Below, one piece after another: positions 9,232 to 29,008 of a DNA stretch of 64,000 nt; position 1 is the stretch's first letter, and each line of letters starts with the position of its first letter. The position numbers and the translations under genes are program-made. The DNA is from Candidatus Parcubacteria bacterium (lineage in GTDB: Bacteria; Patescibacteriota; Minisyncoccia; Sungbacterales; SURF-37), in the NCBI GenBank assembly GCA_003599755.1, contig QZJO01000011.1, positions 66,424-130,423 of the forward strand, given 5' to 3'. Below the pieces are notes generated by a model. That model worked only from the letters and a program-made list of their open reading frames with translations, did not search any database and was not told where the DNA came from.

Positions 9232-10455
9232 TCAGGGGCGGATGCGAGCTGCGCCCGTGGCGTTCGTTACAACGGGAACTCCCGAGGCAGTCAAGTATTC
9301 CATCATTTGCCGGAATTTGTCGGGTGTCGTGCTATAGGTAGTACCCGAGTTGTTGACCTGATGGAAGACGAGGATCAGCCAGACCCCGTCCCGGCGTGCT
9401 TGATCGATCCATCCGCGTACTTCGGCGACCGTCGTGCCGACTCCCACGTTCTGGCGGCGCAGATTATACGGATCATCGCCGAAGCGCACGAATCCGTTCC
9501 AGGTGGAGCGGCCGGCGCTGTAGCCCGCGCTTTTGACCGCAGCGATGACTTCATCATCGAACGCGCCGAAAGGATACGATATCGTTGTGGCCTGAATGCC
9601 CATGGCCGCCAAATCCTCTTTGGATCCGGCTACTTCGGCCATGAGCGCGGATCCGGAAAGCGTGGTCAGATCGGCATGGGTGCGCGTATGCGAGCCGATC
9701 TCATGGCCGGCCGCATGCGCTTCCAGAATCTGACTCTCGGTCATGTAAGCGGGCCATCCGGTGCGCCGCGTGATGATGTTCATCGTCGTGCGAACGCCGT
9801 TTGCGGCCAAGATCGGGGCAATGGTCTGGTACGTATCCCGCCATCCGTCGTCGAAATTGACCGATACCATGCCGCTCATGGGCGGCGGCGCGGGCGCTGC
9901 TTCTTCGAGCACGTAGTTGTCTACGGTCAGCGAGCCCGTGCTCTTTATGAGATGAAATACCGTTAGCGCCACCGCGCCCGCAGGTGCGCTAAACGTTCCC
10001 GATGCGTTTCGCCAGGAGCCGCCGCTCGAGGGTAGGACGGCGATGTCTTTCCACGTATGCGTTCCGTTGGAGTGGCGGTATTGGACCGTGACGTAACTTT
10101 GGGTGTTGGATTGGTAATTATCCGTGAAGCTATAGGTCTTGCCGCTGGCGGTCGGGATTTCGGCGAAATACCATTTCGCATCCCCGCTCGAATAACTCGT
10201 AATGGCGACTGCAGCGGCTTTGGACGAATTGAAACCGGCGACCGGATACGTGAATGTCGCCTGGTTCGTTCCCCAGCGGCCGCGGGCCCAGGATGCCGGA
10301 TTGCCGCCTGAGCCGGCGGTCTCGAGCGACGGGTTTTGTACGAGATTGGCTGCCGCGGCCGATATCGGCGTCCAAACCGCGATCGCGGCGAATATGGCGA
10401 GCGCAAACCACGTCGCGGCGCGCGGTCGCGGTATACAGATGGATGCGGTATGCAT
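9232..10455 (-). CDS. secreted carbohydrate-binding (CBM_4_9-like) plus NodB-type polysaccharide deacetylase
   Basis: Signal peptide; LVQNPSLE...WYFAEI CBM-like region; NodB motifs VSVNFDDGWRD and HEIGSHTRTH. Confidence 0.7.
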   Translation of the reverse strand: MHTASICIPRPRAATWFALAIFAAIAVWTPISAAAANLVQNPSLETAGSGGNPASWARGRWGTNQATFTYPVAGFNSSKAAAVAITSYSSGDAKWYFAEIPTASGKTYSFTDNYQSNTQSYVTVQYRHSNGTHTWKDIAVLPSSGGSWRNASGTFSAPAGAVALTVFHLIKSTGSLTVDNYVLEEAAPAPPPMSGMVSVNFDDGWRDTYQTIAPILAANGVRTTMNIITRRTGWPAYMTESQILEAHAAGHEIGSHTRTHADLTTLSGSALMAEVAGSKEDLAAMGIQATTISYPFGAFDDEVIAAVKSAGYSAGRSTWNGFVRFGDDPYNLRRQNVGVGTTVAEVRGWIDQARRDGVWLILVFHQVNNSGTTYSTTPDKFRQMMEYLTASGVPVVTNATGAARIRP

Positions 10456-10460
10456 AATAG

Positions 10461-11351
10461 TTAGTCGTTCGTGATGGTTAGAATACGGTATTCGTCGAAT
10501 TCGACATCGAGAAAATCGGTGCGAATGCCGCCGCGACCCGGTTCGGTGATGGCCGATCCGCCGACTCGCCCGTCGTCATGCGCTTCGGCCACGAGGCGCC
10601 AGGCGCCTTTCCGATTCCGATCGAAGAACATGCGTATGATGACGGTGCCGTCGGCCTGATCTTGCACTTCGCCGATCAGGCCGAACCATTGATCGCGCGG
10701 TATGAGCGTAGGGTTTTGTTCGCGGTCATACCGGCCGGCAAAGATGGGAGCGCTGGCAAGTTCATAGTAGGTGCCGTTGATTTTTTTCTTGATCGTCGCC
10801 TGCCCGTCTACGCGCAGGCCGACATAGTACAGCGTCTCCGAGTCCTGGTACCGGTGATAGAATCCCACTCCGTTGGATGCGTTCCGGTTGGGACTTTGAC
10901 TATGGTGTTCGCCGCGAATCCGGAAATACGCGATTTGACGTTCATTCCGCCAGCGGTCGCGGGTGAGCAGGCGGAGCAGATTCTGCGGGTGCGCGCCATC
11001 ATCGGTATCGACGGGGTTCGATGCGCGGTAGCGCGTCCGCCAGGACGATTCCTCGCCAAGGTCCCCCATCAGGCCTGCGGCCACGCCGCCGGCTATCGTG
11101 ACCGCGCCGCCCGAGTTAACCCACCAATACCGATCGGTCGATTCGTCCGGCGTCGCGGTTTCTTCGATCACGCGATCTTCGGCAAAGTGTTCATAGAGGG
11201 CTGGGGGCGGAACATCCAGCGATTCCATGGGTCGCTCGCCCGCCCCGATGATCACGGCCAATGCGATCAGCGCCGCTCCGAGCGCCCAGAGTTTGGATCG
11301 AAGCGAGTGAATCAGTTGGCTTGCGGCCTCGCGCAGCGCGGCAACGGTCAT
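10461..11351 (-). CDS. membrane-anchored single-domain paralog of the 6916..8664 tandem-domain protein
   Basis: Start at internal ATG 11351 (MTVAALREA...); N-terminal TM segment LWALGAALIALAVII; same YWWVNSGG...HPQNLLRLL...FDEY domain. The ORF-track N-terminal extension is low-complexity Ser/Arg sequence. Confidence 0.6.
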   Translation of the reverse strand: MTVAALREAASQLIHSLRSKLWALGAALIALAVIIGAGERPMESLDVPPPALYEHFAEDRVIEETATPDESTDRYWWVNSGGAVTIAGGVAAGLMGDLGEESSWRTRYRASNPVDTDDGAHPQNLLRLLTRDRWRNERQIAYFRIRGEHHSQSPNRNASNGVGFYHRYQDSETLYYVGLRVDGQATIKKKINGTYYELASAPIFAGRYDREQNPTLIPRDQWFGLIGEVQDQADGTVIIRMFFDRNRKGAWRLVAEAHDDGRVGGSAITEPGRGGIRTDFLDVEFDEYRILTITND

Positions 11352-11361
11352 AGCGAAACGG

Positions 11362-12972
11362 TCACGGAGCGGCGGCGGTTGCCGGCGAGAGCGGAATCGC
11401 TCGCACCTCGCGCAAGACCAGCTGGCTTGCGTCCGGGCGCGCATCCCAGCCCTTGATGCCCACGCCTCCGGAATCGAGCGCTCGTTCGAGAAACGGCGTC
11501 GCGACGATGACTTCGCCGTTGAGCAGGCATTCGACGCTCCGGCCCCGGACGCGGATGGCGACTTCGAAGTTTCGTTCCGGAAGACTGGCGGCACGTTCGA
11601 CGCCGCGGATGACGCGCAGATCCCCGAGGTATTTCTGCTCGACGTGGGCAACCTGCTGGCTGAAGTTGCACGCGACGAAATTGTCATCGTTCTTGAAGCG
11701 CCCCCAGAGGTAGATATTCCCGCCGGCAAGCCGATCGACCACGGCGGTGAACTGATAATCGCGCCACGCCCGCGTGCCATCCAACAGGGCCGCGCTGCCG
11801 GTATCGTTGGCGGTGGGATGGAGCGCGAGCATGCCGCCGCGATGCTCCAGTACGCCCCAGGTACGGATCCAACCCGTGTCGCGATCGAGCGTGTCGGTGA
11901 ACGGCAGGGGCTTGGCGAGCCCCGCGTCCAGGCGTTCCAGAAGTTCTTCGATCCCCCATTCCGCCCGCACCTCGATGCGCCGGATGAAAAAATGTTCGCT
12001 GGCGTTGCCGCCCGGGTGATAGTTTTGCGTGAAGCGGTTGTCGTCGGACTGCTGGTAAAAAGCCATTGCGTAGATGGACAAGGCGCTGCCGAGTACGATG
12101 TCGCGCGCTTCGGGGTGGTTGAACGTCGGTTCGCCGAAATTGCCAAACGGAAACGCGAAGCCGGTGACGCGGGTGCCGAGCGTATCTTCAAGATTGCGCT
12201 TCGACGATAGGAGATCCTCCAGTACGCGATTCATGAATTCATCATTCGTCTCGAGGCGCCCCGGGCCGGCAAGCCAGAGTTTATTCGAGAAAAAATGCCC
12301 CATGTTGCCCGCGTCATCCACCGGATAGAATTCGTGCGCGTTGTTGCCGTGCGAATGGACTTCCCAGCGGCCGCTTTGAATCATTTGCTTCAACTCCTCG
12401 CCGCTCAGATAGTATTTGCTATTTTGATTCAGCGAAAATTTCGTGATTGCGAACATGACCGCCCGATAATCCAGGGCCTTGAGTACCGGATCCACGGGGT
12501 AATAGCTGTCTTTGCGGCCGTCGTCGAATGTGAGCACGAACGATTTTTCCGGAGGCTTTTTTTCGCCGCGCAGAAATGCATAGAGTTCCGCCAGCGTGAC
12601 GGTCTCCCAGCCGGCCCGTTTGAGCGCGAACATTTGCTCCTTGAAGTGCTGGTTCGGCACGTTGATGCCGCCGGGCGCGGCAACCACGCCGTGGTACAAG
12701 AGCACCGGAATGGATTCTGCCGGCCGCGGCGGCGTGGTCGAGATCGCGCCGGCCGCGGCGCGCGACGCCTCGCCGCCGAACCGATATTCGATCGCATAGC
12801 GGATCGTGTCGGCCCAGATGCCGGCGTAGCGAAAACTCAGATACGGATTATCGCGGGCGAATGAGACGCCCGCGATAAGGCCGGCGGCTACCATCATGAT
12901 GATGCCGAAAAATACAATCTTTGACGTGGTCGGCGTGTGCGTACGGAGCATAGGGGTCAGCGCGTTCCCCAT
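11362..12972 (-). CDS. membrane-anchored NodB-type polysaccharide deacetylase (PgaB/IcaB-like) with C-terminal extra domain
   Basis: VLLYHGV...LTFDDGRKDSY...HSHG motifs; N-terminal TM segment; start choice 12972 vs 12951 unresolved. Confidence 0.7.
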   Translation of the reverse strand: MGNALTPMLRTHTPTTSKIVFFGIIMMVAAGLIAGVSFARDNPYLSFRYAGIWADTIRYAIEYRFGGEASRAAAGAISTTPPRPAESIPVLLYHGVVAAPGGINVPNQHFKEQMFALKRAGWETVTLAELYAFLRGEKKPPEKSFVLTFDDGRKDSYYPVDPVLKALDYRAVMFAITKFSLNQNSKYYLSGEELKQMIQSGRWEVHSHGNNAHEFYPVDDAGNMGHFFSNKLWLAGPGRLETNDEFMNRVLEDLLSSKRNLEDTLGTRVTGFAFPFGNFGEPTFNHPEARDIVLGSALSIYAMAFYQQSDDNRFTQNYHPGGNASEHFFIRRIEVRAEWGIEELLERLDAGLAKPLPFTDTLDRDTGWIRTWGVLEHRGGMLALHPTANDTGSAALLDGTRAWRDYQFTAVVDRLAGGNIYLWGRFKNDDNFVACNFSQQVAHVEQKYLGDLRVIRGVERAASLPERNFEVAIRVRGRSVECLLNGEVIVATPFLERALDSGGVGIKGWDARPDASQLVLREVRAIPLSPATAAAP

Positions 12973-19999: not shown

Positions 20000-20160
20000 A
20001 GTTCCCCGGTTACCAATGACGCTTGTAGTATCTCCGGCCCGCCGAAGCAGGTCAATTTCGGCTGTGGATAGGATATGCGCGCCCACGGAGCGCGCGCAGT
20101 AAGCGCGTGCGCTCTTGCGCGTCTTATACCACTACCAATGATTCGTCCGTTCACTCTTTT

Positions 20161-20619
20161 ATGGCGCAGAATCCCATCGACATGATCGTTGCGGACCATC
20201 GGACCGTCGAGCGGCTGTTTGCGGAATATCAGCATGCCGCCGCGGCCGAGCGGCGCTCCATTGCCGAGCGCCTGTTCGGAGCGTTGGAAGCGCACGCGCG
20301 TATGGAGGAGCAAGTGTTTTATCCTGCGGTTGCCGATCAAAAGGAGCGCGCAGCGACCGATAGGGTGGCCGAAGCCCAGCGGGAACACGGTGACATAAAA
20401 TTAATGATTGCCGAGCTGCGAAACCGAGCGCCCGGTGCGGCGTTTGATGAACGCATGGCCAATCTCAAAGAGGCGGTAGAGCACCACGTCAAAGAAGAAG
20501 AGACCGAGCTTTTACCCTACGCGGCAGAGCGGTTGTCGGGCCATGAGAACGCGATTGCCAGAGAGATGGAGCGGGTCAAAATGAGTATCGCGCATGCGGA
20601 TGAGCGCGGCATCGCATAG
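20161..20619 (+). CDS. hemerythrin-like (HHE cation-binding) domain protein
   Basis: Paired H..E...H helices (DHRTVERLF, EAHARMEEQVFYP, REHGDIK, VEHHVKEEE). Confidence 0.6.
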   Translation: MAQNPIDMIVADHRTVERLFAEYQHAAAAERRSIAERLFGALEAHARMEEQVFYPAVADQKERAATDRVAEAQREHGDIKLMIAELRNRAPGAAFDERMANLKEAVEHHVKEEETELLPYAAERLSGHENAIAREMERVKMSIAHADERGIA

Positions 20620-20633
20620 GCATCAGCTGGAGC

Positions 20634-20666
20634 AAAAACCGTCCGCCATTGAAGCGGACGGTTTTT
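20634..20666. terminator. bidirectional rho-independent terminator
   Basis: aaaaaccgtccgc / gcggacggttttt 13-bp stem with A-run and T-run flanks, between convergent genes ending at 20619 and 20687. Confidence 0.55.
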
Positions 20667-20686
20667 GTTCGGTTCGGTGGAACGAC

Positions 20687-22264
20687 CTATCGGTCTGGGG
20701 CGGGCAGCGGCTGCGTTACCGCTTCGGGCGGCGACATTTTTTCCAACGGCATAATCACCGGAGGCGGCGGCGCTTGATCAAGAATTTCTTTGACCAGCGG
20801 CACCATCACCGCGCGCGGCGCCCATGCGTTCTGGGGAGCTTTTGCGGCTTCGAAGCGGAGCGCCGGAATGAGGAGCTCTTCGCCTCGGAAATTCGTGTAC
20901 CGCCAGAAGCGCATGAGGACGAATTCGGGCGTTCCGAGCGCTACGGTTTCTGCGTTACCGTTCTCGGCCGGCAACATGCCGCCGTACAGGCCTCCGCGAA
21001 GCGCGAATTCTTTGAGGCGTTCGACGTTTTGTTCGAGCGCGTAGGATGATTTTTGGAAGTCGAGCGTATTGATGTTGCCGACGTTCATAGCTTTTCTCTC
21101 GCGCGCATCCACGGTGACCACGATGCCATAGGGCATGCCGCCTTCTTCGTAGACCTCCAGATCCCCGATTTTCAAGGGATAGATGACCGAGATCATGTCC
21201 GGGATGTAGCGGGCCGGACGCGTGCCGTCTTCTAGGAGCGGCTGCGGATACCAGCGCCAGCCGTCATCCACGACGGGCGCGCCGTAGTGGGACGTATCGA
21301 TGCGGTGCTCGGAGAGGAACGCGTCGGCGATGCTGATGAGCGTTTCGGATGCGGGAACTTCGGACTCGGCGAGCGGTTGGTACTCCTTGCCTTCGCGGTG
21401 CCAGCGCTCCCAATCGGCATTGATCGTAATCATGCCTTCGGGCACGTTGACGTTGATCGCGTAGCCGTAGTCGCGATTCTCCACGACCTCGAGGTTGCGT
21501 ACTGTAAGCGCGGAGAATGTGTCGAGCGCGATATCGAAGTTCATGCGGCGAAGCGCGGGCACCAGGTCCGCGGCGGAGCGGCTCGATTTGATGCGTTTGT
21601 AGACGCTTCCGTCGGCAGGTGTTTCGAACGCGTCGCCCGCGTAGCGGTATTCCCAGGGCGTATACGGCCAAGGCGCGATTGTCATGCCCGCCGTTCCTCC
21701 GCCGCCGCTTTGGGAGCGCCCCTCGATCGTGCTCGGGGCAAGCGCGCCGTCTCCGCCCATGCCGAATGCCATCATCGGGGCCGGCGATGCATCGCTGGGA
21801 GCGGTCGCGTCGGCGCCCAGTTCCTGGCCGCTGCCGGTATCGCTTCCTTTCGGCGTCGCGCTCGCGCCAACGAGGTCGCCGAATGCGCGCGCTCCTGCCT
21901 CTTCTATATTCAGGGCGAGTACGCCGCTTTGGCCGCCGGATCCGCCGTAGTCCAGATAGGTGACGCCGGCAAGCGCGACGATAACAAGCGCCAGTGCGCC
22001 GTACGCGAACCCGCTTCGCCGAAGCTCCAGCGAGGCGAGTCGCCAGATTGCGAATGATCCCCCGTTCGGCGCGGCACTGCGCATCGGCAAGGGCCGCTTC
22101 TTGAGCTCTGCGCGCAAGCGGGTGACGAATGCGGTATCAAGCTTGGTATCCGGCTTCATGAGCGAAAATTCGCGAATGATGATTTTGATGCGGTCTTCCT
22201 CGGCGCGGAGCGTTGGATCTATCTCGTAGAGCTCCGCGAGGATTTGGTCGATGGATTTATTCAT
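20687..22264 (-). CDS. anti-sigma factor: cytoplasmic N-domain, one TM, large extracytoplasmic domain
   Basis: Start ATG 22264 overlaps the sigma-factor stop by 4 nt; MNKSIDQILAELYEIDP anti-sigma-like N-terminus; TM FAYGALALVIVALAGVTYL. Confidence 0.55.
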   Translation of the reverse strand: MNKSIDQILAELYEIDPTLRAEEDRIKIIIREFSLMKPDTKLDTAFVTRLRAELKKRPLPMRSAAPNGGSFAIWRLASLELRRSGFAYGALALVIVALAGVTYLDYGGSGGQSGVLALNIEEAGARAFGDLVGASATPKGSDTGSGQELGADATAPSDASPAPMMAFGMGGDGALAPSTIEGRSQSGGGGTAGMTIAPWPYTPWEYRYAGDAFETPADGSVYKRIKSSRSAADLVPALRRMNFDIALDTFSALTVRNLEVVENRDYGYAINVNVPEGMITINADWERWHREGKEYQPLAESEVPASETLISIADAFLSEHRIDTSHYGAPVVDDGWRWYPQPLLEDGTRPARYIPDMISVIYPLKIGDLEVYEEGGMPYGIVVTVDARERKAMNVGNINTLDFQKSSYALEQNVERLKEFALRGGLYGGMLPAENGNAETVALGTPEFVLMRFWRYTNFRGEELLIPALRFEAAKAPQNAWAPRAVMVPLVKEILDQAPPPPVIMPLEKMSPPEAVTQPLPAPDR

Positions 22265-22821
22265 ATTGAGTGCGTGGCATAAAGGATAATCAGGAACGCG
22301 GCCAAGGCATTCGCGGCGCGCAGCTGCCGGATAGCCCGGGAGAAGATGACTTTGCAATGGCCCTCGCTTTTCTGGACGATCTGGGCGATTTCCTGGTACG
22401 AGAGCCCTTCCCACAAGCGCAGCATGAGGATGTCGCGCTGGACGCTGGGCAGGGCCTGCACCTCGGCGCGTACGGCCGCGAGGCGCTGGCGCGCATCGGC
22501 ATCCCGTGCGATGTCCGAGGTATCCGGAATATCCCAGGCATCGTCGATCTCGAGCGCCGGCCGAGCCGTGCGGTAGTGATCGATGACGGTATTGCGGGCG
22601 ATGCGGTACAGCCACGCGCCGAAACGCTGATCGGGATCGCACGAATCGATGTGCTCGAGCGCCTTGATAAACGTTTTGGCGGTGAGGTCTTCGGCGGTCT
22701 CTTTGTGGTGCGTCTTGTAGTAGACGTAGGTATATATCTTCTTGATATACCGATCATAGAGAGCGCTGAACGCTTCTCGGTCTCCCGTTTGGCACGCTCG
22801 AACGAGCGATTCGTCAGTCAT
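22261..22821 (-). CDS. ECF (sigma-70 family group 4) RNA polymerase sigma factor
   Basis: Region 2 (YIKKIYTYVYYKT...AEDLTAKTFIKA) and region 4 (LSYQEIAQIVQKSEGHCKV). Confidence 0.8.
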   Translation of the reverse strand: MTDESLVRACQTGDREAFSALYDRYIKKIYTYVYYKTHHKETAEDLTAKTFIKALEHIDSCDPDQRFGAWLYRIARNTVIDHYRTARPALEIDDAWDIPDTSDIARDADARQRLAAVRAEVQALPSVQRDILMLRLWEGLSYQEIAQIVQKSEGHCKVIFSRAIRQLRAANALAAFLIILYATHSI

Positions 22822-23121: not shown

Positions 23122-23577
23122 ATGGCGGGAACCGCGACAAAACTCATCGGTGCGGTGCTGTCCGTGGCAATCATCGGTTCGGCGATCGCGTGGCTTTCGC
23201 GCGCCGAGGACGCCGCGCCGGTTTCGCCTGCCGCGGGGATGCACGGCGGGCCGCCGCCGGGCATGCCGGGGCACATGCGCCGCTATGCTGACGGCACGTA
23301 TGCGGCAACCGGGAATTATATTTCACCCGCTGGCCGGGAGGAGATCGAGATTATGCTGACGGTCGCTGACGATATCGTCGTTGACGCGCATTTTACCGGC
23401 AAGGCGACGCATGCTACGAGTCGGACCATGCAGGGCCGGTTCGGCGCCGGCTTTCGAGAACACGTCGTGGGAAAACCGATCGACCAGATCGTGCTGGACG
23501 TCGTCAACGGCTCGTCGCTCACGCCCAAAGGATTCATGGAGGCGCTCGCGAAGATAAAAGCCGAGGCCTCGTCTTAG
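23122..23577 (+). CDS. secreted/lipoprotein-like protein, candidate FMN-binding domain (possible ApbE substrate)
   Basis: Signal/TM MAGTATKLIGAVLSVAIIGSAIAWL; ...FTGKATHATSRT... weakly resembles the FMN_bind flavinylation motif; convergent with the ApbE gene and overlaps it by 4 nt. Confidence 0.4.
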   Translation: MAGTATKLIGAVLSVAIIGSAIAWLSRAEDAAPVSPAAGMHGGPPPGMPGHMRRYADGTYAATGNYISPAGREEIEIMLTVADDIVVDAHFTGKATHATSRTMQGRFGAGFREHVVGKPIDQIVLDVVNGSSLTPKGFMEALAKIKAEASS

Positions 23578-24443
23578 AACAACTCGGCCGCGAATCCCGC
23601 CGAGCGCCGCACGCGGCGCTCGGCATTGAGCATGCAGTATTCGAAATCAAACGCGGCGAATCGCTCCGGCGCCGCGAAAAAGAGACCGGTCGCAAGCGCG
23701 TCGGCGAGTACCGCGCGGTCCGCGATGACCCAGGTTGCGAGAATTTCGCGGGGCGAGCGGAGTGTGGCCGGATCAATGATATGATGCCAGTCGCGCCAAG
23801 TCCGGCGGTTCCCGCTGGAGCTCGCCATCGCCCCCTCGGACATCGCGATCGCACCGATGATCTTGGACGGGTCGTCCGGATCCTCGAGTCCGACGCGGAG
23901 CGGCTCGCTGCCCGCGTGGAATATGTCGCCGCTGCCGTCGACCACAAATCGCCGCAATCCGGCCTTCTGCAGATAGGCGGCGACGTTATCGATGAAATAC
24001 CCCTTGCCGAGCGCCCCGAAATCAAAGAGCACGGGCTCAGCAATGCGGATATGGCGCTCGTCCAGAATCGTTACCGTCGCATCCAAGTCCGGCGTGGAGC
24101 GGATCGTCCTGTGCGGCGTGAGCGTGTAATCCGCGTCGTAGCCCAAATCCGAAATTGAGAATCCGACGAGCGGGTTCAGTTTTTTATTCGAGGGGTGCCA
24201 GAGCCTCCGGTACCAGTCGAGCATGGCCGTGAAATCGGCCGGCACTTCGGCCTCGCCCGCATGCGTCGCGAGCCGCCGCACGAGCGAGGTCGCGATAAAG
24301 CGCGAATACGTCTGGTCGAATTCGTCGGCCATGCGCGTTATCGTTTTTTGAATCGCGTCCCATGCCGCATCGCCCATGCCGTCCCCGACGCTGATGCGCC
24401 AGCGCGTGCCCATGGATTCGTAGACCCACTCGCGTTTCGGCAT
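23574..24443 (-). CDS. apbE: FAD:protein FMN transferase (ApbE/Ftp family)
   Basis: SSGNRRTWRDWHHIIDPATLRSP (TSG...HHIIDP motif) and DGSGDIFHAGS; start overlaps the upstream gene stop by 1 nt. Confidence 0.75.
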   Translation of the reverse strand: MPKREWVYESMGTRWRISVGDGMGDAAWDAIQKTITRMADEFDQTYSRFIATSLVRRLATHAGEAEVPADFTAMLDWYRRLWHPSNKKLNPLVGFSISDLGYDADYTLTPHRTIRSTPDLDATVTILDERHIRIAEPVLFDFGALGKGYFIDNVAAYLQKAGLRRFVVDGSGDIFHAGSEPLRVGLEDPDDPSKIIGAIAMSEGAMASSSGNRRTWRDWHHIIDPATLRSPREILATWVIADRAVLADALATGLFFAAPERFAAFDFEYCMLNAERRVRRSAGFAAELF

Positions 24444-25954
24444 CAGTATCCCGGAAAATAATCGGTGGCGATCCGGCCTGCGGCAACGCCCATGCCGCGA
24501 AGCAGCCGTTTGTAGGATTCCACCATTGCATTGGGTCCGGAAAGGTAGAACGTCCGCTCCTTCCAGTCCGAGACATGAGTTCGTATCATCGCCGGAGTCA
24601 AAAAGCCGCGCTCGCGGATCCACGCGATCCCCTCCCCGCCCTCGTTGACCAGATATACGGTTCGCAGGCCGATTGCGCGCTCCGCCGCGCCGAGGAAATC
24701 GCGGTACGCGATATCCGCGGGGGTCCGATTCGAGTAGAACAACACGATGTCCCGGCGCTCGGCCCGGTCCATGCAATATTTGATCATGCTGCGAAACGGC
24801 GTGATGCCGATGCCGCCGGCAACGAATGCCAGTTTTTCGCGCGCGGCCGCCGGCAGCGTAAAATCGCCGGCCAACTGTCCCGCCCAAATCCGATCTCCCG
24901 GCTCGAGCGAGACGAGTTTTTGCTTAAAGGTGCTCGGTTTGGGGCCGAAGCGCACGCCGATGCGGAGGTCGGATTCCGTCGGCGAAGCCGCGATGGTGAA
25001 GTACCGGCGGATGCCCCGCACATCCGATCGTGCGTGCGGCAGGGTCCACTCCAGGTATTGCCCGGGTCGGAATGCGAGCGGCGCATCGGGTTTGAAGACG
25101 AATTCAAACGTGTCGCGGGCGGTCTCGATTTTTTCCGCAAGCACGAGCGTCAGCCGACGTTTGAGCCCGACCGCGTAGGAAAACAAATTGCCGATGACAA
25201 GCGCGAGTTCGGGTGATGACGATATGGGGCCGAACGCGAATGGGATACTCGAGAGCAGTCCCACGCCCGCGCCATACGCCAGCTGTAGCCGCCGCGTCGG
25301 CGGCATGGTCTGCGGCTCGGTCATCATGATGGCGGCGAAGAATACGATCGGCCACGAAAGGAAGTGCTGGCCGAGGAGATCATATATATCGGACTCGGCG
25401 AGGATCCCGAGCGCGAGCACGCCGACTACGCTTGCCGTGATGCCGGCAAGAACGAGCGAGAACCGCCTGATTTTTTTGACGATGAGCAATCCTACGAGCG
25501 CCGTGGCCGGCAGCATGACCGCCGATCCGATCCACCAAATCGCGCCGCCGCCCGCGGTAAAGCCGAGCGCGACTGCCGCGAACGCCGCCGGATTGAACAG
25601 ATGCCGGTTCCGCGTGGCGATGACGTATTTGGCGGCGACCGCGATCACGGCCGCAAGCGCGAGCCATGCGGCATCGCGGGACGAAAACGGCGGCGACATG
25701 ATGAAAAACAGGATGAGCGCGGTAATGAGCGTGGATTCGATGTTCGCCGGCGCGGCATAGAATTTCGCCCAAGCATAGTGCGCAAAAAGCGCCGCGGCAA
25801 CGAGTACGCCGAGCGACAGCAGCAATTGCAAACCGGAATATGAAAGCATTCCGGCAAACCCGAAAAGCACTGCCACGAGAGCGGGCCCGCCCAGGCCCCA
25901 AATCAGGAGGCGGTACATGGTGATCGAGTCGATCAATCGGTTCAGGGCGTTCAT
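24443..25954 (-). CDS. integral-membrane oxidoreductase: N-terminal polytopic domain fused to FNR-like FAD/NAD(P)-binding reductase domain
   Basis: About 8 predicted TM helices, then RRYFTIAS (RxY[ST] FAD motif) and FVAGGIGITPFRS (NAD(P) motif). Confidence 0.65.
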   Translation of the reverse strand: MNALNRLIDSITMYRLLIWGLGGPALVAVLFGFAGMLSYSGLQLLLSLGVLVAAALFAHYAWAKFYAAPANIESTLITALILFFIMSPPFSSRDAAWLALAAVIAVAAKYVIATRNRHLFNPAAFAAVALGFTAGGGAIWWIGSAVMLPATALVGLLIVKKIRRFSLVLAGITASVVGVLALGILAESDIYDLLGQHFLSWPIVFFAAIMMTEPQTMPPTRRLQLAYGAGVGLLSSIPFAFGPISSSPELALVIGNLFSYAVGLKRRLTLVLAEKIETARDTFEFVFKPDAPLAFRPGQYLEWTLPHARSDVRGIRRYFTIAASPTESDLRIGVRFGPKPSTFKQKLVSLEPGDRIWAGQLAGDFTLPAAAREKLAFVAGGIGITPFRSMIKYCMDRAERRDIVLFYSNRTPADIAYRDFLGAAERAIGLRTVYLVNEGGEGIAWIRERGFLTPAMIRTHVSDWKERTFYLSGPNAMVESYKRLLRGMGVAAGRIATDYFPGY

Positions 25955-26134: not shown

Positions 26135-27397
26135 TCACTCGGGGTGCTGCCGCAATCCGGCAAGAGCCAACAGCCGGAACGCGGTTTTGTAGGTGATCTT
26201 CAGTTTCTTCGCTACCTCCCGTCGGTTGCCCCGGCATTCGACCCAAAGATCCCGCACCAGTTTGATCCGCTGTTCTTCGGTCGTCCTTCTTTTGAGCTCT
26301 GTCCAGCTCAGCTGGATCAGCGAGCTGGGCAGCGGCGCGCTGGCGGGGGCGACGTCGGTGGGTTCCGGATCTTCCGCGGTGCTCTCCCAGGCGCTGCCCT
26401 GGGCCAAGTAGTACTGGATATCGCGTTCCGACACGGTGTCGCCGGGAAAGAGATGCCGTATCCGCGTGACTAGATGCTTGAGTTCGCGAACGTTCCCGGG
26501 CCAGGCGTACGCCTCCATGGCGCGGATCGCATCCGCTGAGAATTTTTTTTCCGGAGCTGCAGCTTGGAGGAACCGGGTGGCGAGCCCGGCGATGTCATCG
26601 ACGCGCTCCGCGAGACGGGGTACGTGGATCCGGATGACGGTAAGCCGATGGAAGAGATCGGCTCGGAAGAGCCCGCGCTTGACGAGCGCGGGCAAATCCC
26701 GGTTCGTTGCGGCGAGGATGCGCACGTTTACGACTCGAGATTCCACGCCTCCCACGCGCCATATCACCTGATCATCCAGGAACCGCAGCAGTTTTATCTG
26801 GAGGCCGAATGGGAGATCGCCGATCTCGTCCAGGAGGACCGTGCCGCCGTTGGCGGCAAGGAATAGTCCCGAGCTTTCGCGCACGGCTCCGGTAAACGCT
26901 CCGCGGACATGCCCGAAGAGCAGGCTCTCGGCGAGCTCCGGCGCGAGGAGGCCACAGTTCACCGGGATGAAGGGCTTGTTTTTACGGTCGCTGAGCCGAT
27001 GGAATGCCCGAGCAACGAGCTCCTTGCCGACGCCGCTGGCGCCGGTAATGAGTATCGAAGCGTCGGTTGCGGCGACTTTTCTGATGTCTGCGGCAAGTCG
27101 CTGCATGATCGGGCTGAACAAGAGGAAGCCGGGAACTAGCTCCGGATCTTCGGCGAATGCGGGGAATGCGGCGGCGGGCGGTATGACCGCCGCCGGCGCA
27201 GGCCTTCGCGAAGCGCGCCACGGATGCTGCCGGCAGAATTCCTCGAACGATATGAGCGGCAGGTTCGCTGTGCGCAGCCGGGTTTCGTGCGCATAGAATG
27301 CGCTTCTGCAGGCATTGCAGGAGCCGAACCGCCGGTATGTAGCCGGGCGGATGCCGCAGCGTTTGCATAGCGGCGCGGTCGCAGATGGCGTCACCAT
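26135..27397 (-). CDS. sigma-54-dependent transcriptional activator with N-terminal zinc ribbon instead of a receiver domain
   Basis: Walker A ITGASGVGKE; arginine finger/GAFTGA region HVRGAFTGA; C-terminal Fis-type HTH; N-terminal CKRCG...CNAC. Confidence 0.8.
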   Translation of the reverse strand: MVTPSATAPLCKRCGIRPATYRRFGSCNACRSAFYAHETRLRTANLPLISFEEFCRQHPWRASRRPAPAAVIPPAAAFPAFAEDPELVPGFLLFSPIMQRLAADIRKVAATDASILITGASGVGKELVARAFHRLSDRKNKPFIPVNCGLLAPELAESLLFGHVRGAFTGAVRESSGLFLAANGGTVLLDEIGDLPFGLQIKLLRFLDDQVIWRVGGVESRVVNVRILAATNRDLPALVKRGLFRADLFHRLTVIRIHVPRLAERVDDIAGLATRFLQAAAPEKKFSADAIRAMEAYAWPGNVRELKHLVTRIRHLFPGDTVSERDIQYYLAQGSAWESTAEDPEPTDVAPASAPLPSSLIQLSWTELKRRTTEEQRIKLVRDLWVECRGNRREVAKKLKITYKTAFRLLALAGLRQHPE

Positions 27398-27863: not shown

Positions 27864-28064
27864 TCATGCCGATTCCCCGACATGCGCCCAGAAATCGTCA
27901 TCCCGCTCCGTAGGCGGAAGCCGCACCAGGATCTTTTTCCGATGGAGGAAATCGCACATGATGCGATTCCCGTCTGCCCACTGATCGCCGTGCGACGTGT
28001 GATGATGACGGCAGAGCCGCTCATCATTCGGCAAAACCGATCCGCACGCTGCGCACAGTGCCAT
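27864..28064 (-). CDS. mini HNH-like endonuclease-fold protein (66 aa), paralog 1
   Basis: GAGGAGG RBS; CAAC...C.HHH..H.D.W..GNRIMCDFLHRKK matches HNH architecture (CxxC, catalytic His, Asn, second C...H pair). Confidence 0.5.
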   Translation of the reverse strand: MALCAACGSVLPNDERLCRHHHTSHGDQWADGNRIMCDFLHRKKILVRLPPTERDDDFWAHVGESA

Positions 28065-28514: not shown

Positions 28515-28832
28515 CTACGAGATGGTTCTCCACCGGTGGGCCACGAGTCGCTGGTCCTGGCGCACGCGGGGCAGCGGGATGGGCGGAAGGTTATAACGCT
28601 GCGGGATGCTGGATTGCCTTGGCTCTCGGGGCAGATCATGCCGCCAATCTTCGCGGTGTGCCCCGGCGTCGTCCCGCTCCGCCATTGCAAGGCGCGGCGG
28701 CAGCTTCTTGCGGTGGAGGAAGTCGCACATGATGCGGTTGCCCTCCGCCCAGTCGCGGCTGGCACAGTCGATGTGGTGAGGGCAGATATCTGCGCCTTGG
28801 AGCCGATTGTCGCACATCACGCACTGCGGCAT
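28515..28832 (-). CDS. mini HNH-like endonuclease-fold protein (105 aa), paralog 2
   Basis: AAGGAGGAG RBS; MPQCVMCDN...CPHHIDCASRDWAEGNRIMCDFLHRKK; the GNRIMCDFLHRKK core is identical to paralog 1. Confidence 0.5.
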   Translation of the reverse strand: MPQCVMCDNRLQGADICPHHIDCASRDWAEGNRIMCDFLHRKKLPPRLAMAERDDAGAHREDWRHDLPREPRQSSIPQRYNLPPIPLPRVRQDQRLVAHRWRTIS

Positions 28833-29008
28833 GATCTCCTCCTTGAGGAAGTGCTCGACAGCGTTTGTCGTAGATCGCAAGCAGTTCGCCGTGGTTGCTC
28901 GCGAAGAAATCGTCTCGACCGCGCCACTGGGGCATTTATAAAGAAGCATAATAAATACATTTTGTCAATAAATGCACGCACCAACGGCCCGTATACTACG
29001 GTCAGAAT

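Follow-up and report, generated by a model that had tools for sequence, protein, structure and literature searches.

What does a small exported protein do beside a flavin transferase of the ApbE family and a membrane reductase in a bacterium of the candidate phyla radiation? The three genes in question lie side by side in a 64,000-nucleotide stretch of contig QZJO01000011.1 (hereafter the window), and for each of their products NCBI has an identical entry from the metagenome-assembled genome of a Candidatus Parcubacteria bacterium. Together the genes probably specify a transmembrane electron-transfer module of the NQR/RNF-like type, with two subunits, and the enzyme that matures it. One subunit is a fusion of an NqrB/RnfD-like membrane domain with an FNR-type reductase domain, the second is a small protein with a predicted membrane anchor, and the enzyme belongs to the flavin adenine dinucleotide (FAD):protein flavin mononucleotide (FMN) transferases. 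The stop codon of the fusion gene and the start of the ApbE gene have one base in common, and the small gene converges on the ApbE gene from the opposite strand with a 4-nt overlap of their 3' ends. An earlier note, made by reading the letters of the window, had delimited these same three open reading frames (ORFs); as the 1-nt and 4-nt overlaps follow from the ORF coordinates, the positions and overlaps that it gave are correct. Its naming of an ApbE flavin transferase and of a membrane protein fused to an FNR-type domain is likewise borne out below.

The fusion is matched by the Pfam family NQR2_RnfD_RnfE (PF03116) at residues 169–276 of a 520-residue ORF (33.4 bits against a cut-off of 27.7) and by NAD_binding_1 (PF00175) at residues 394–499 (E = 4.7e-15). 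A profile built from 24 relatives of the fusion finds its best solved relatives in the FAD/NAD domains of NqrF (E ~1e-17). The R-x-(Y/F)-T and GGxGxxP motifs of the FNR domain are invariant among the 24 relatives, and the RRYFTIAS and AGGIGITP segments singled out in the earlier note are real features of this domain, with the core residues R316, R317, F319, T320, G380, G381, G383, T385 and P386 invariant in the same set. The AlphaFold2 model of the fusion (mean predicted local distance difference test score, pLDDT, of 85.7) contains about 10 membrane helices. Foldseek searches with this model matched FNR-family structures with E-values down to 4e-18 and were uninformative on the membrane domain because the FNR domain dominates the matches. 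When the membrane domain was searched as a profile, the sole match in the PDB was RnfD (8ahx_D; weak, E = 0.039), and a weak profile match to RsxD was also obtained. The alignment of the membrane half with E. coli RsxD runs through the FNPA and T(D/E)P motifs, and the RsxD loop of approximately 75 residues that carries the flavinylated GISQATPL is deleted in the fusion, which contains no [ST]GA[ST] motif. The positively charged residues KRR directly follow the last membrane helix. Judging from the modelled helices and the distribution of Lys and Arg, both termini and the FNR domain would be cytoplasmic and the stump of the deleted loop would lie outside.

This architecture has been described before. 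The "NQR/RNF-like systems" of Meheust et al. (2021, eLife; PMC8238504) are defined by an NqrB/RnfD and NAD-binding fusion inside a flavinylation cluster, a cluster being recognised by an ApbE or FMN_bind gene within five genes, at least one of them with a signal peptide or lipidation site. Most of the described systems come from Actinobacteria and the candidate phyla radiation (PMC8238504, PMC11334425). The window has the PF03116–PF00175 fusion, an adjacent ApbE gene and a small protein with a predicted export signal. Huang et al. (2024, mSystems; PMC11334425) described a two-subunit complex with an NqrC/RnfG-like extracytosolic subunit, in which the flavinylation site of NqrB/RnfD is lost, and the flavinylated Thr of NqrB/RnfD is absent from the window fusion too. 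The window locus is an ordinary member of this published, bioinformatically defined class, with which it shares the fusion, the adjacent ApbE and membrane-anchored NqrC/RnfG-like subunit, the loss of the site and the occurrence in the candidate phyla radiation and Actinobacteria. The fusion architecture, which the earlier note had called unusual, is not so, because it defines the class and has more than 5000 relatives at E <= 1e-5; the likeness to NQR/RNF-like flavinylated systems that the note drew fits the published class. Three features of the locus are not stated in the papers: the small subunit mostly escapes the Pfam FMN_bind model, it carries G-S-S in place of G-A-T, and the linked ApbE has no signal peptide, a point mentioned in neither systematic study (PMC8238504, PMC11334425). 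For the class 127 clusters were reported (PMC8238504 / PMC11334425), and it looks commoner than that, given that relatives of the small protein were found by scanning in 381 species genomes.

The family of the small protein comprises 3462 representatives at 50% identity, the great majority of its members coming from candidate phyla radiation lineages and some from Actinobacteria, Streptomyces among them. Its N-terminal hydrophobic segment is preceded by Lys and followed by an acidic stretch. Of 149 relatives, 143 possess such a segment, and among the 149 a lipobox occurs in 44 and a twin-arginine motif in four; the assignment as an export signal rests on hydropathy, charge distribution and the lipoboxes of the relatives. 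The Pfam FMN_bind model (PF04205) weakly matches seven of 24 relatives (best E = 1.3e-4), two of which reach the 22-bit cut-off, and the matches span model positions 5–74 of 77. The AlphaFold2 model has a pLDDT of approximately 98 over residues 55–151 and shows three strands followed by helices, with a helix at residues 6–26 and the last helix at residues 134–150. Foldseek matches to this model include the FMN_bind crystal structures 8p2a and 8p2b and RnfG (8rb8_G). These results suggest, but do not prove, that the family is a divergent FMN_bind branch. A 440-residue relative (P0309) contains three tandem domains of the G-S-S type, none recognised by Pfam, and resembles published multi-flavinylated proteins.

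A strongly conserved part of the small protein is the segment 126-DVVNGSSLTPKGF-138, with its core within VVNGSSLTPKGF. In the V-N-G-S-S-L-T-P-K-G-F region, 24 relatives show no variation at G130, S131, S132 and T134 and almost none at P135, and the G-S-S-x-T-P segment sits just before the last helix, approximately 20 residues from the C-terminus. The segment aligns with DFDQFTGATITPRAV, the flavinylation site (TGATITP) of E. coli RsxG, which puts Ser132 in the place of the flavinylated Thr. From this position Ser132 is the likely FMN acceptor. Related loci have G-A-S, G-N-S (in a Streptomyces paralogue) or the canonical S-G-A-T at the same position. The published ApbE substrate motif is D-x-x-[ST]-G-A-[ST], with FMN on the last residue (PMC12052999), and the D-V-V-N-G-S-S of the window agrees with it in Asp at -6, Gly at -2 and Ser as acceptor. 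Ser is accepted as an acceptor residue, and changes at -1 and -2 reduce flavinylation but do not abolish it; Ala-to-Val and Gly-to-Ala changes leave approximately 50%, and an Ala-to-Ser change is not reported (PMC12052999). The earlier note had placed a flavinylation-like motif at TGKATHATS, which has to be given up: this stretch is variable in relatives and sits in the loop that follows strand 3 and not ahead of the last helix, and G130-S131-S132-x-T134-P135 is conserved instead.

Gene linkage was followed across 80 related loci from different species. In 78 of them the small gene adjoins an ApbE gene, co-directionally or convergently and often with an overlap, an association far beyond chance. 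The fusion gene adjoins this pair in 32–33 loci. A count of 48 obtained from a BLAST-graph cluster was a chaining artefact, and direct tblastn, blastp and motif counts gave 30–33. The small/ApbE pair is found without the fusion in 30 loci that have at least 5 kb of flank on both sides. In the reverse direction, three fusion proteins encoded on long contigs served as starting points: an ApbE gene adjoined each of them, and a small FMN_bind-type gene adjoined two. Actinobacterial-looking contigs carry three overlapping genes in the order small, ApbE, fusion. In a sister locus (L087, 2685..5530) a canonical S-G-A-T FMN_bind subunit is followed by ApbE and then by the same type of fusion; the ApbE of this locus has 251 residues, belongs to a different clade and is likewise without a signal peptide. 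In Streptomyces niveus (L081, 4277..6447) an ApbE without a signal peptide lies between the genes of two paralogous lipoproteins of the small-protein family, one with G-S-S and one with G-N-S. No RnfD-FNR fusion was found near these S. niveus genes, and a Flavodoxin_4 gene and a membrane FAD_binding_8/NAD_binding_1 protein are encoded approximately 4 kb away (9659..11752). The module, which is of the candidate phyla radiation type, also occurs in several genomes of approximately 1 to 1.6 Mb labelled 'uncultured Gammaproteobacteria' (L005, L035 and L078 among them; for instance OZ246401.1, 938 kb), and these labels look doubtful.

In the proposed mechanism, reduced nicotinamide adenine dinucleotide (phosphate) (NAD(P)H) would be oxidised on the FAD of the FNR domain at the cytoplasmic side, and the electrons would cross the membrane through the NqrB/RnfD-like domain, which is thought to hold a non-covalent flavin. 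At the outer face they would pass to an FMN bound as a phosphoester to Ser132 of the membrane-anchored small protein, and this flavin would then reduce an extracytoplasmic acceptor. ApbE would install the FMN, taking it from FAD. The net effect would be a quinone-independent disposal of reducing equivalents, or the reduction of an external substrate such as Fe(III). The host group is not expected to have a quinone-based respiratory chain. Published descriptions propose this mechanism for the class (PMC8238504, PMC11334425), and an AlphaFold-Multimer model suggested that the covalent flavin of the small subunit reaches the flavin site of the membrane subunit (PMC11334425).

The module resembles Na+-NQR and Rnf in that its membrane domain is homologous to NqrB/RnfD, its reductase domain has the FAD/NAD domain of NqrF as its nearest relative, its small-subunit motif aligns with the RnfG/RsxG site, and ApbE-dependent maturation is expected. 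It differs from them in having only two subunits, without NqrA/D/E or RnfA/B/C/E, and in lacking both the 2Fe-2S domain of the reductase and the covalent-flavin loop of the membrane subunit. Electron flow would presumably run one way across the membrane and not in the semicircular fashion of those complexes, and ion pumping is not indicated by any evidence for the module. The Listeria locus (FmnB, PplA, Ndh2, EetA/B) has in common with the window an ApbE-family enzyme and a membrane-anchored or lipoprotein FMN_bind carrier, thought in both cases to pass electrons from cytoplasmic NADH to outside acceptors. Electrons in Listeria travel via the quinone pool and EetA/B, FmnB is an exported lipoprotein, and an ECF transporter exports FAD (PMC9973259). 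In the window, by contrast, the NAD(P)H domain and the membrane conduit form a single protein, nothing implies a quinone step and the ApbE has no export signal. A narrower role of the module, as a dedicated assimilatory ferric reductase for iron uptake and not for general electron disposal or respiration, appears rather unlikely. Six NQR/RNF-like clusters lie beside a VIT1 ferrous iron transporter (PMC8238504), and a hemerythrin-domain gene is located 2.5 kb from the module in the window; however, this gene is not a conserved neighbour, and no iron transporter is conserved near the module in the 80 loci or adjacent to it in the window.

The ApbE protein is matched by its Pfam family over model positions 1–253 of 266 and aligns with the E. 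coli ApbE structures 4xgw and 2o18 from the first beta-strand onward. Its motifs are kept (HHIIDP against SHVIDP, and ADALATGLF against ADAWDTGLM in E. coli), the catalytic roles of the residues being taken from a review (PMC12052999). It has no signal peptide: the protein starts 9 residues before the first strand from the GTG annotated by NCBI, or 15 residues before it from an alternative ATG at 24461, and further upstream the in-frame sequence falls within the fusion gene and lacks hydrophobic character. The possibility that translation begins further upstream and adds a signal peptide was considered and rejected, as 66 of 79 ApbE ORFs of the related loci start no earlier than that of the window and the 13 longer in-frame ORFs have a Met immediately before the conserved start. 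The best 120 database relatives are all 280–304 residues long, and signal-less ApbE proteins also occur in the actinobacterial and Streptomyces loci.

Several results weigh against the two-subunit electron-transfer module with ApbE as its maturation enzyme. The ApbE is signal-less and its presumed substrate is exported, so that the two are predicted in different compartments. The motif of the small protein departs from the published one in having Asn at -3 and Ser for Ala at -1, and the Asp at -6 is not conserved among relatives. No Pfam or NCBIfam match was obtained for the window protein itself, with no FMN_bind match at E < 0.1; the family profile found no NqrC/RnfG in the PDB, only chance matches to ribosomal protein S6; an hhalign comparison with E. 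coli RsxG was insignificant (2% probability); and the Foldseek matches are weak (E ~0.02), with IscU/SufU-like folds ranking equally. The earlier note's description of a small exported FMN_bind-type protein thus stands as to the signal anchor and the weak matches of relatives, and finds no Pfam match in the window copy. Approximately 60% of the related loci have no fusion gene within 5–8 kb of the small/ApbE pair, and no acceptor enzyme, transporter or any further neighbour is conserved near the module in the 80 loci. A literature search found no experimental study of the NQR/RNF-like class.

The mismatch of compartments, the non-canonical motif, the missing FMN_bind match of the window protein and the weak structural matches could also mean that the small protein is not an ApbE substrate at all. 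The ApbE would then modify a cytoplasmic target, or it would supply the fusion, as a flavin-trafficking enzyme or an FAD pyrophosphatase. Flavin would be held non-covalently by the small protein, or the role of this protein would lie outside redox chemistry. This explanation is improbable, as it has to contend with a small gene that adjoins ApbE in 78 of the 80 loci, often with an overlap and even where no fusion is nearby, and with the invariance of Ser132 and its neighbours, which align with a proven type of flavinylation site. The canonical SGAT stands at the same position in the sister locus. No [ST]GA[ST]-type motif preceded by Asp was found in the fusion or in any credible ORF of the window that would point to another substrate. 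The earlier note had named, as the outcome that would overturn it, the lack of an FMN_bind match for 23122..23577 combined with a different ApbE substrate nearby; the match is indeed absent, yet no credible ORF of the window offers a rival canonical substrate motif.

The location of an ApbE determines which substrates it serves, and the only examples of cytosolic ApbE proteins listed in the review are those of Klebsiella and eukaryotes (PMC12052999). The mismatch could be resolved in three ways: the small protein is flavinylated before it is exported, the genome encodes a second ApbE that is exported, or this ApbE has another cytoplasmic role. In the first case the module would be the same, and the cytoplasmic ApbE would flavinylate the unfolded or untranslocated small protein at the variant G-S-S before its export. 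The FMN-bearing chain would then be exported by Sec in most lineages and possibly by Tat in a few; Tat as a general solution was rejected, given the twin-arginine motif in only 4 of 149 N-termini. This order of events is conceivable, though less likely than not. The conserved ApbE starts and lengths speak for it, with the catalytic motifs kept, as do the signal anchors or lipoboxes of nearly all small proteins and the signal-less ApbE proteins of the actinobacterial and Streptomyces loci and of the locus with the SGAT partner. A seven-residue motif is all that ApbE requires, and tags at protein termini are substrates (PMC12052999); the motif here lies near the C-terminus. The cytoplasmic ApbE of Klebsiella pneumoniae, whose partner is a soluble fumarate reductase, resembles that of the window in having no signal peptide and differs from it in that its substrate is cytoplasmic, whereas the presumed substrate linked to the window ApbE is exported; the Klebsiella enzyme serves only this cytoplasmic substrate, and in Salmonella a cytosolic ApbE was unable to replace the periplasmic one (PMC12052999). 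The insertion of signal-anchored proteins normally takes place during translation, with little access for a cytosolic enzyme, and a second, exported ApbE may sit elsewhere in the genome, of which the 64-kb window is the part in view. In favour of flavinylation before export, SecYEG reportedly passes preproteins with rigid adducts of approximately 2 nm (work of Bonardi and colleagues from 2011); against it, a flavinylated chain is not known to us to have been exported by Sec in any other case.

Features of the locus and its surroundings in the window (positions on the forward strand).
Feature	Positions	Strand	Basis
Small exported FMN_bind-like protein, candidate NqrC/RnfG-like subunit, 151 residues	23122..23577	+	ORF; NCBI hypothetical protein C4552_03940
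N-terminal hydrophobic segment of the small protein, ~residues 8-26, predicted signal peptide or anchor	23143..23199	+	sequence KLIGAVLSVAIIGSAIAWL
Variant flavinylation motif, D126-V-V-N-G-S-S-L-T-P-K-G-F138	23497..23535	+	conservation; RsxG alignment
Ser132 codon, predicted FMN acceptor	23515..23517	+	position in motif
ApbE-family FAD:protein FMN transferase, 289 residues	23574..24443	-	PF02424, E = 1.6e-40; NCBI GTG start
Fusion of NqrB/RnfD-like membrane domain and FNR-type domain, 503 residues	24443..25954	-	PF03116 and PF00175
Membrane domain of the fusion, ~residues 1-265	25160..25954	-	PF03116; RnfD/RsxD profile matches
FNR-type FAD/NAD(P)H-binding domain of the fusion, ~residues 266-503 plus stop	24443..25159	-	PF00175
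Hemerythrin-domain gene	20107..20619	+	
651-residue ORF	20687..22642	-	
ECF sigma factor	22261..22821	-	
Sigma-54-dependent activator	26135..27397	-	PF00158, E = 3e-60
Small Cys/His-rich ORF	27864..28064	-	
Small Cys/His-rich ORF	28515..28949	-	

Upstream of the small gene are the hemerythrin-domain gene, a 651-residue ORF without a Pfam match and an ECF sigma factor gene, and these three (20107..22821) may form a regulatory unit. Directly upstream of the fusion gene and on the same strand is a sigma-54-dependent activator with an N-terminal CxxC...CxxC segment in place of a receiver domain. None of these four genes is conserved beside the module in the 80 related loci. The two small Cys/His-rich ORFs are neighbouring paralogues that have the stretch W[AE][DE]GNRIMCDFLHRKK in common.

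What the locus adds to the published class is modest: a branch of the small subunit that is largely invisible to Pfam and uses G-S-S, and a linked ApbE that is signal-less. The Pfam FMN_bind model mostly misses the small subunit, and no signal peptide marks the ApbE. Flavinylation in the phyla concerned will therefore be undercounted by surveys that use both features as filters, which may be part of the reason why extracytosolic flavinylation was reported to be under-represented in the candidate phyla radiation (PMC8238504). Flavinylation before export by a dedicated clade of cytoplasmic ApbE proteins, if true, would mean that a polypeptide with covalent FMN passes the Sec translocon in the candidate phyla radiation and Actinobacteria, and that extracytoplasmic flavoproteins can be made without an exported ApbE or exported FAD. 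The prevailing view of candidate phyla radiation bacteria is that they ferment and lack respiratory chains. If the module works as proposed, it would be among the few recognisable redox devices in these organisms, and such a direct connection between NAD(P)H and the cell exterior would matter for their reoxidation of NAD(P)H and for their interactions with hosts or minerals.

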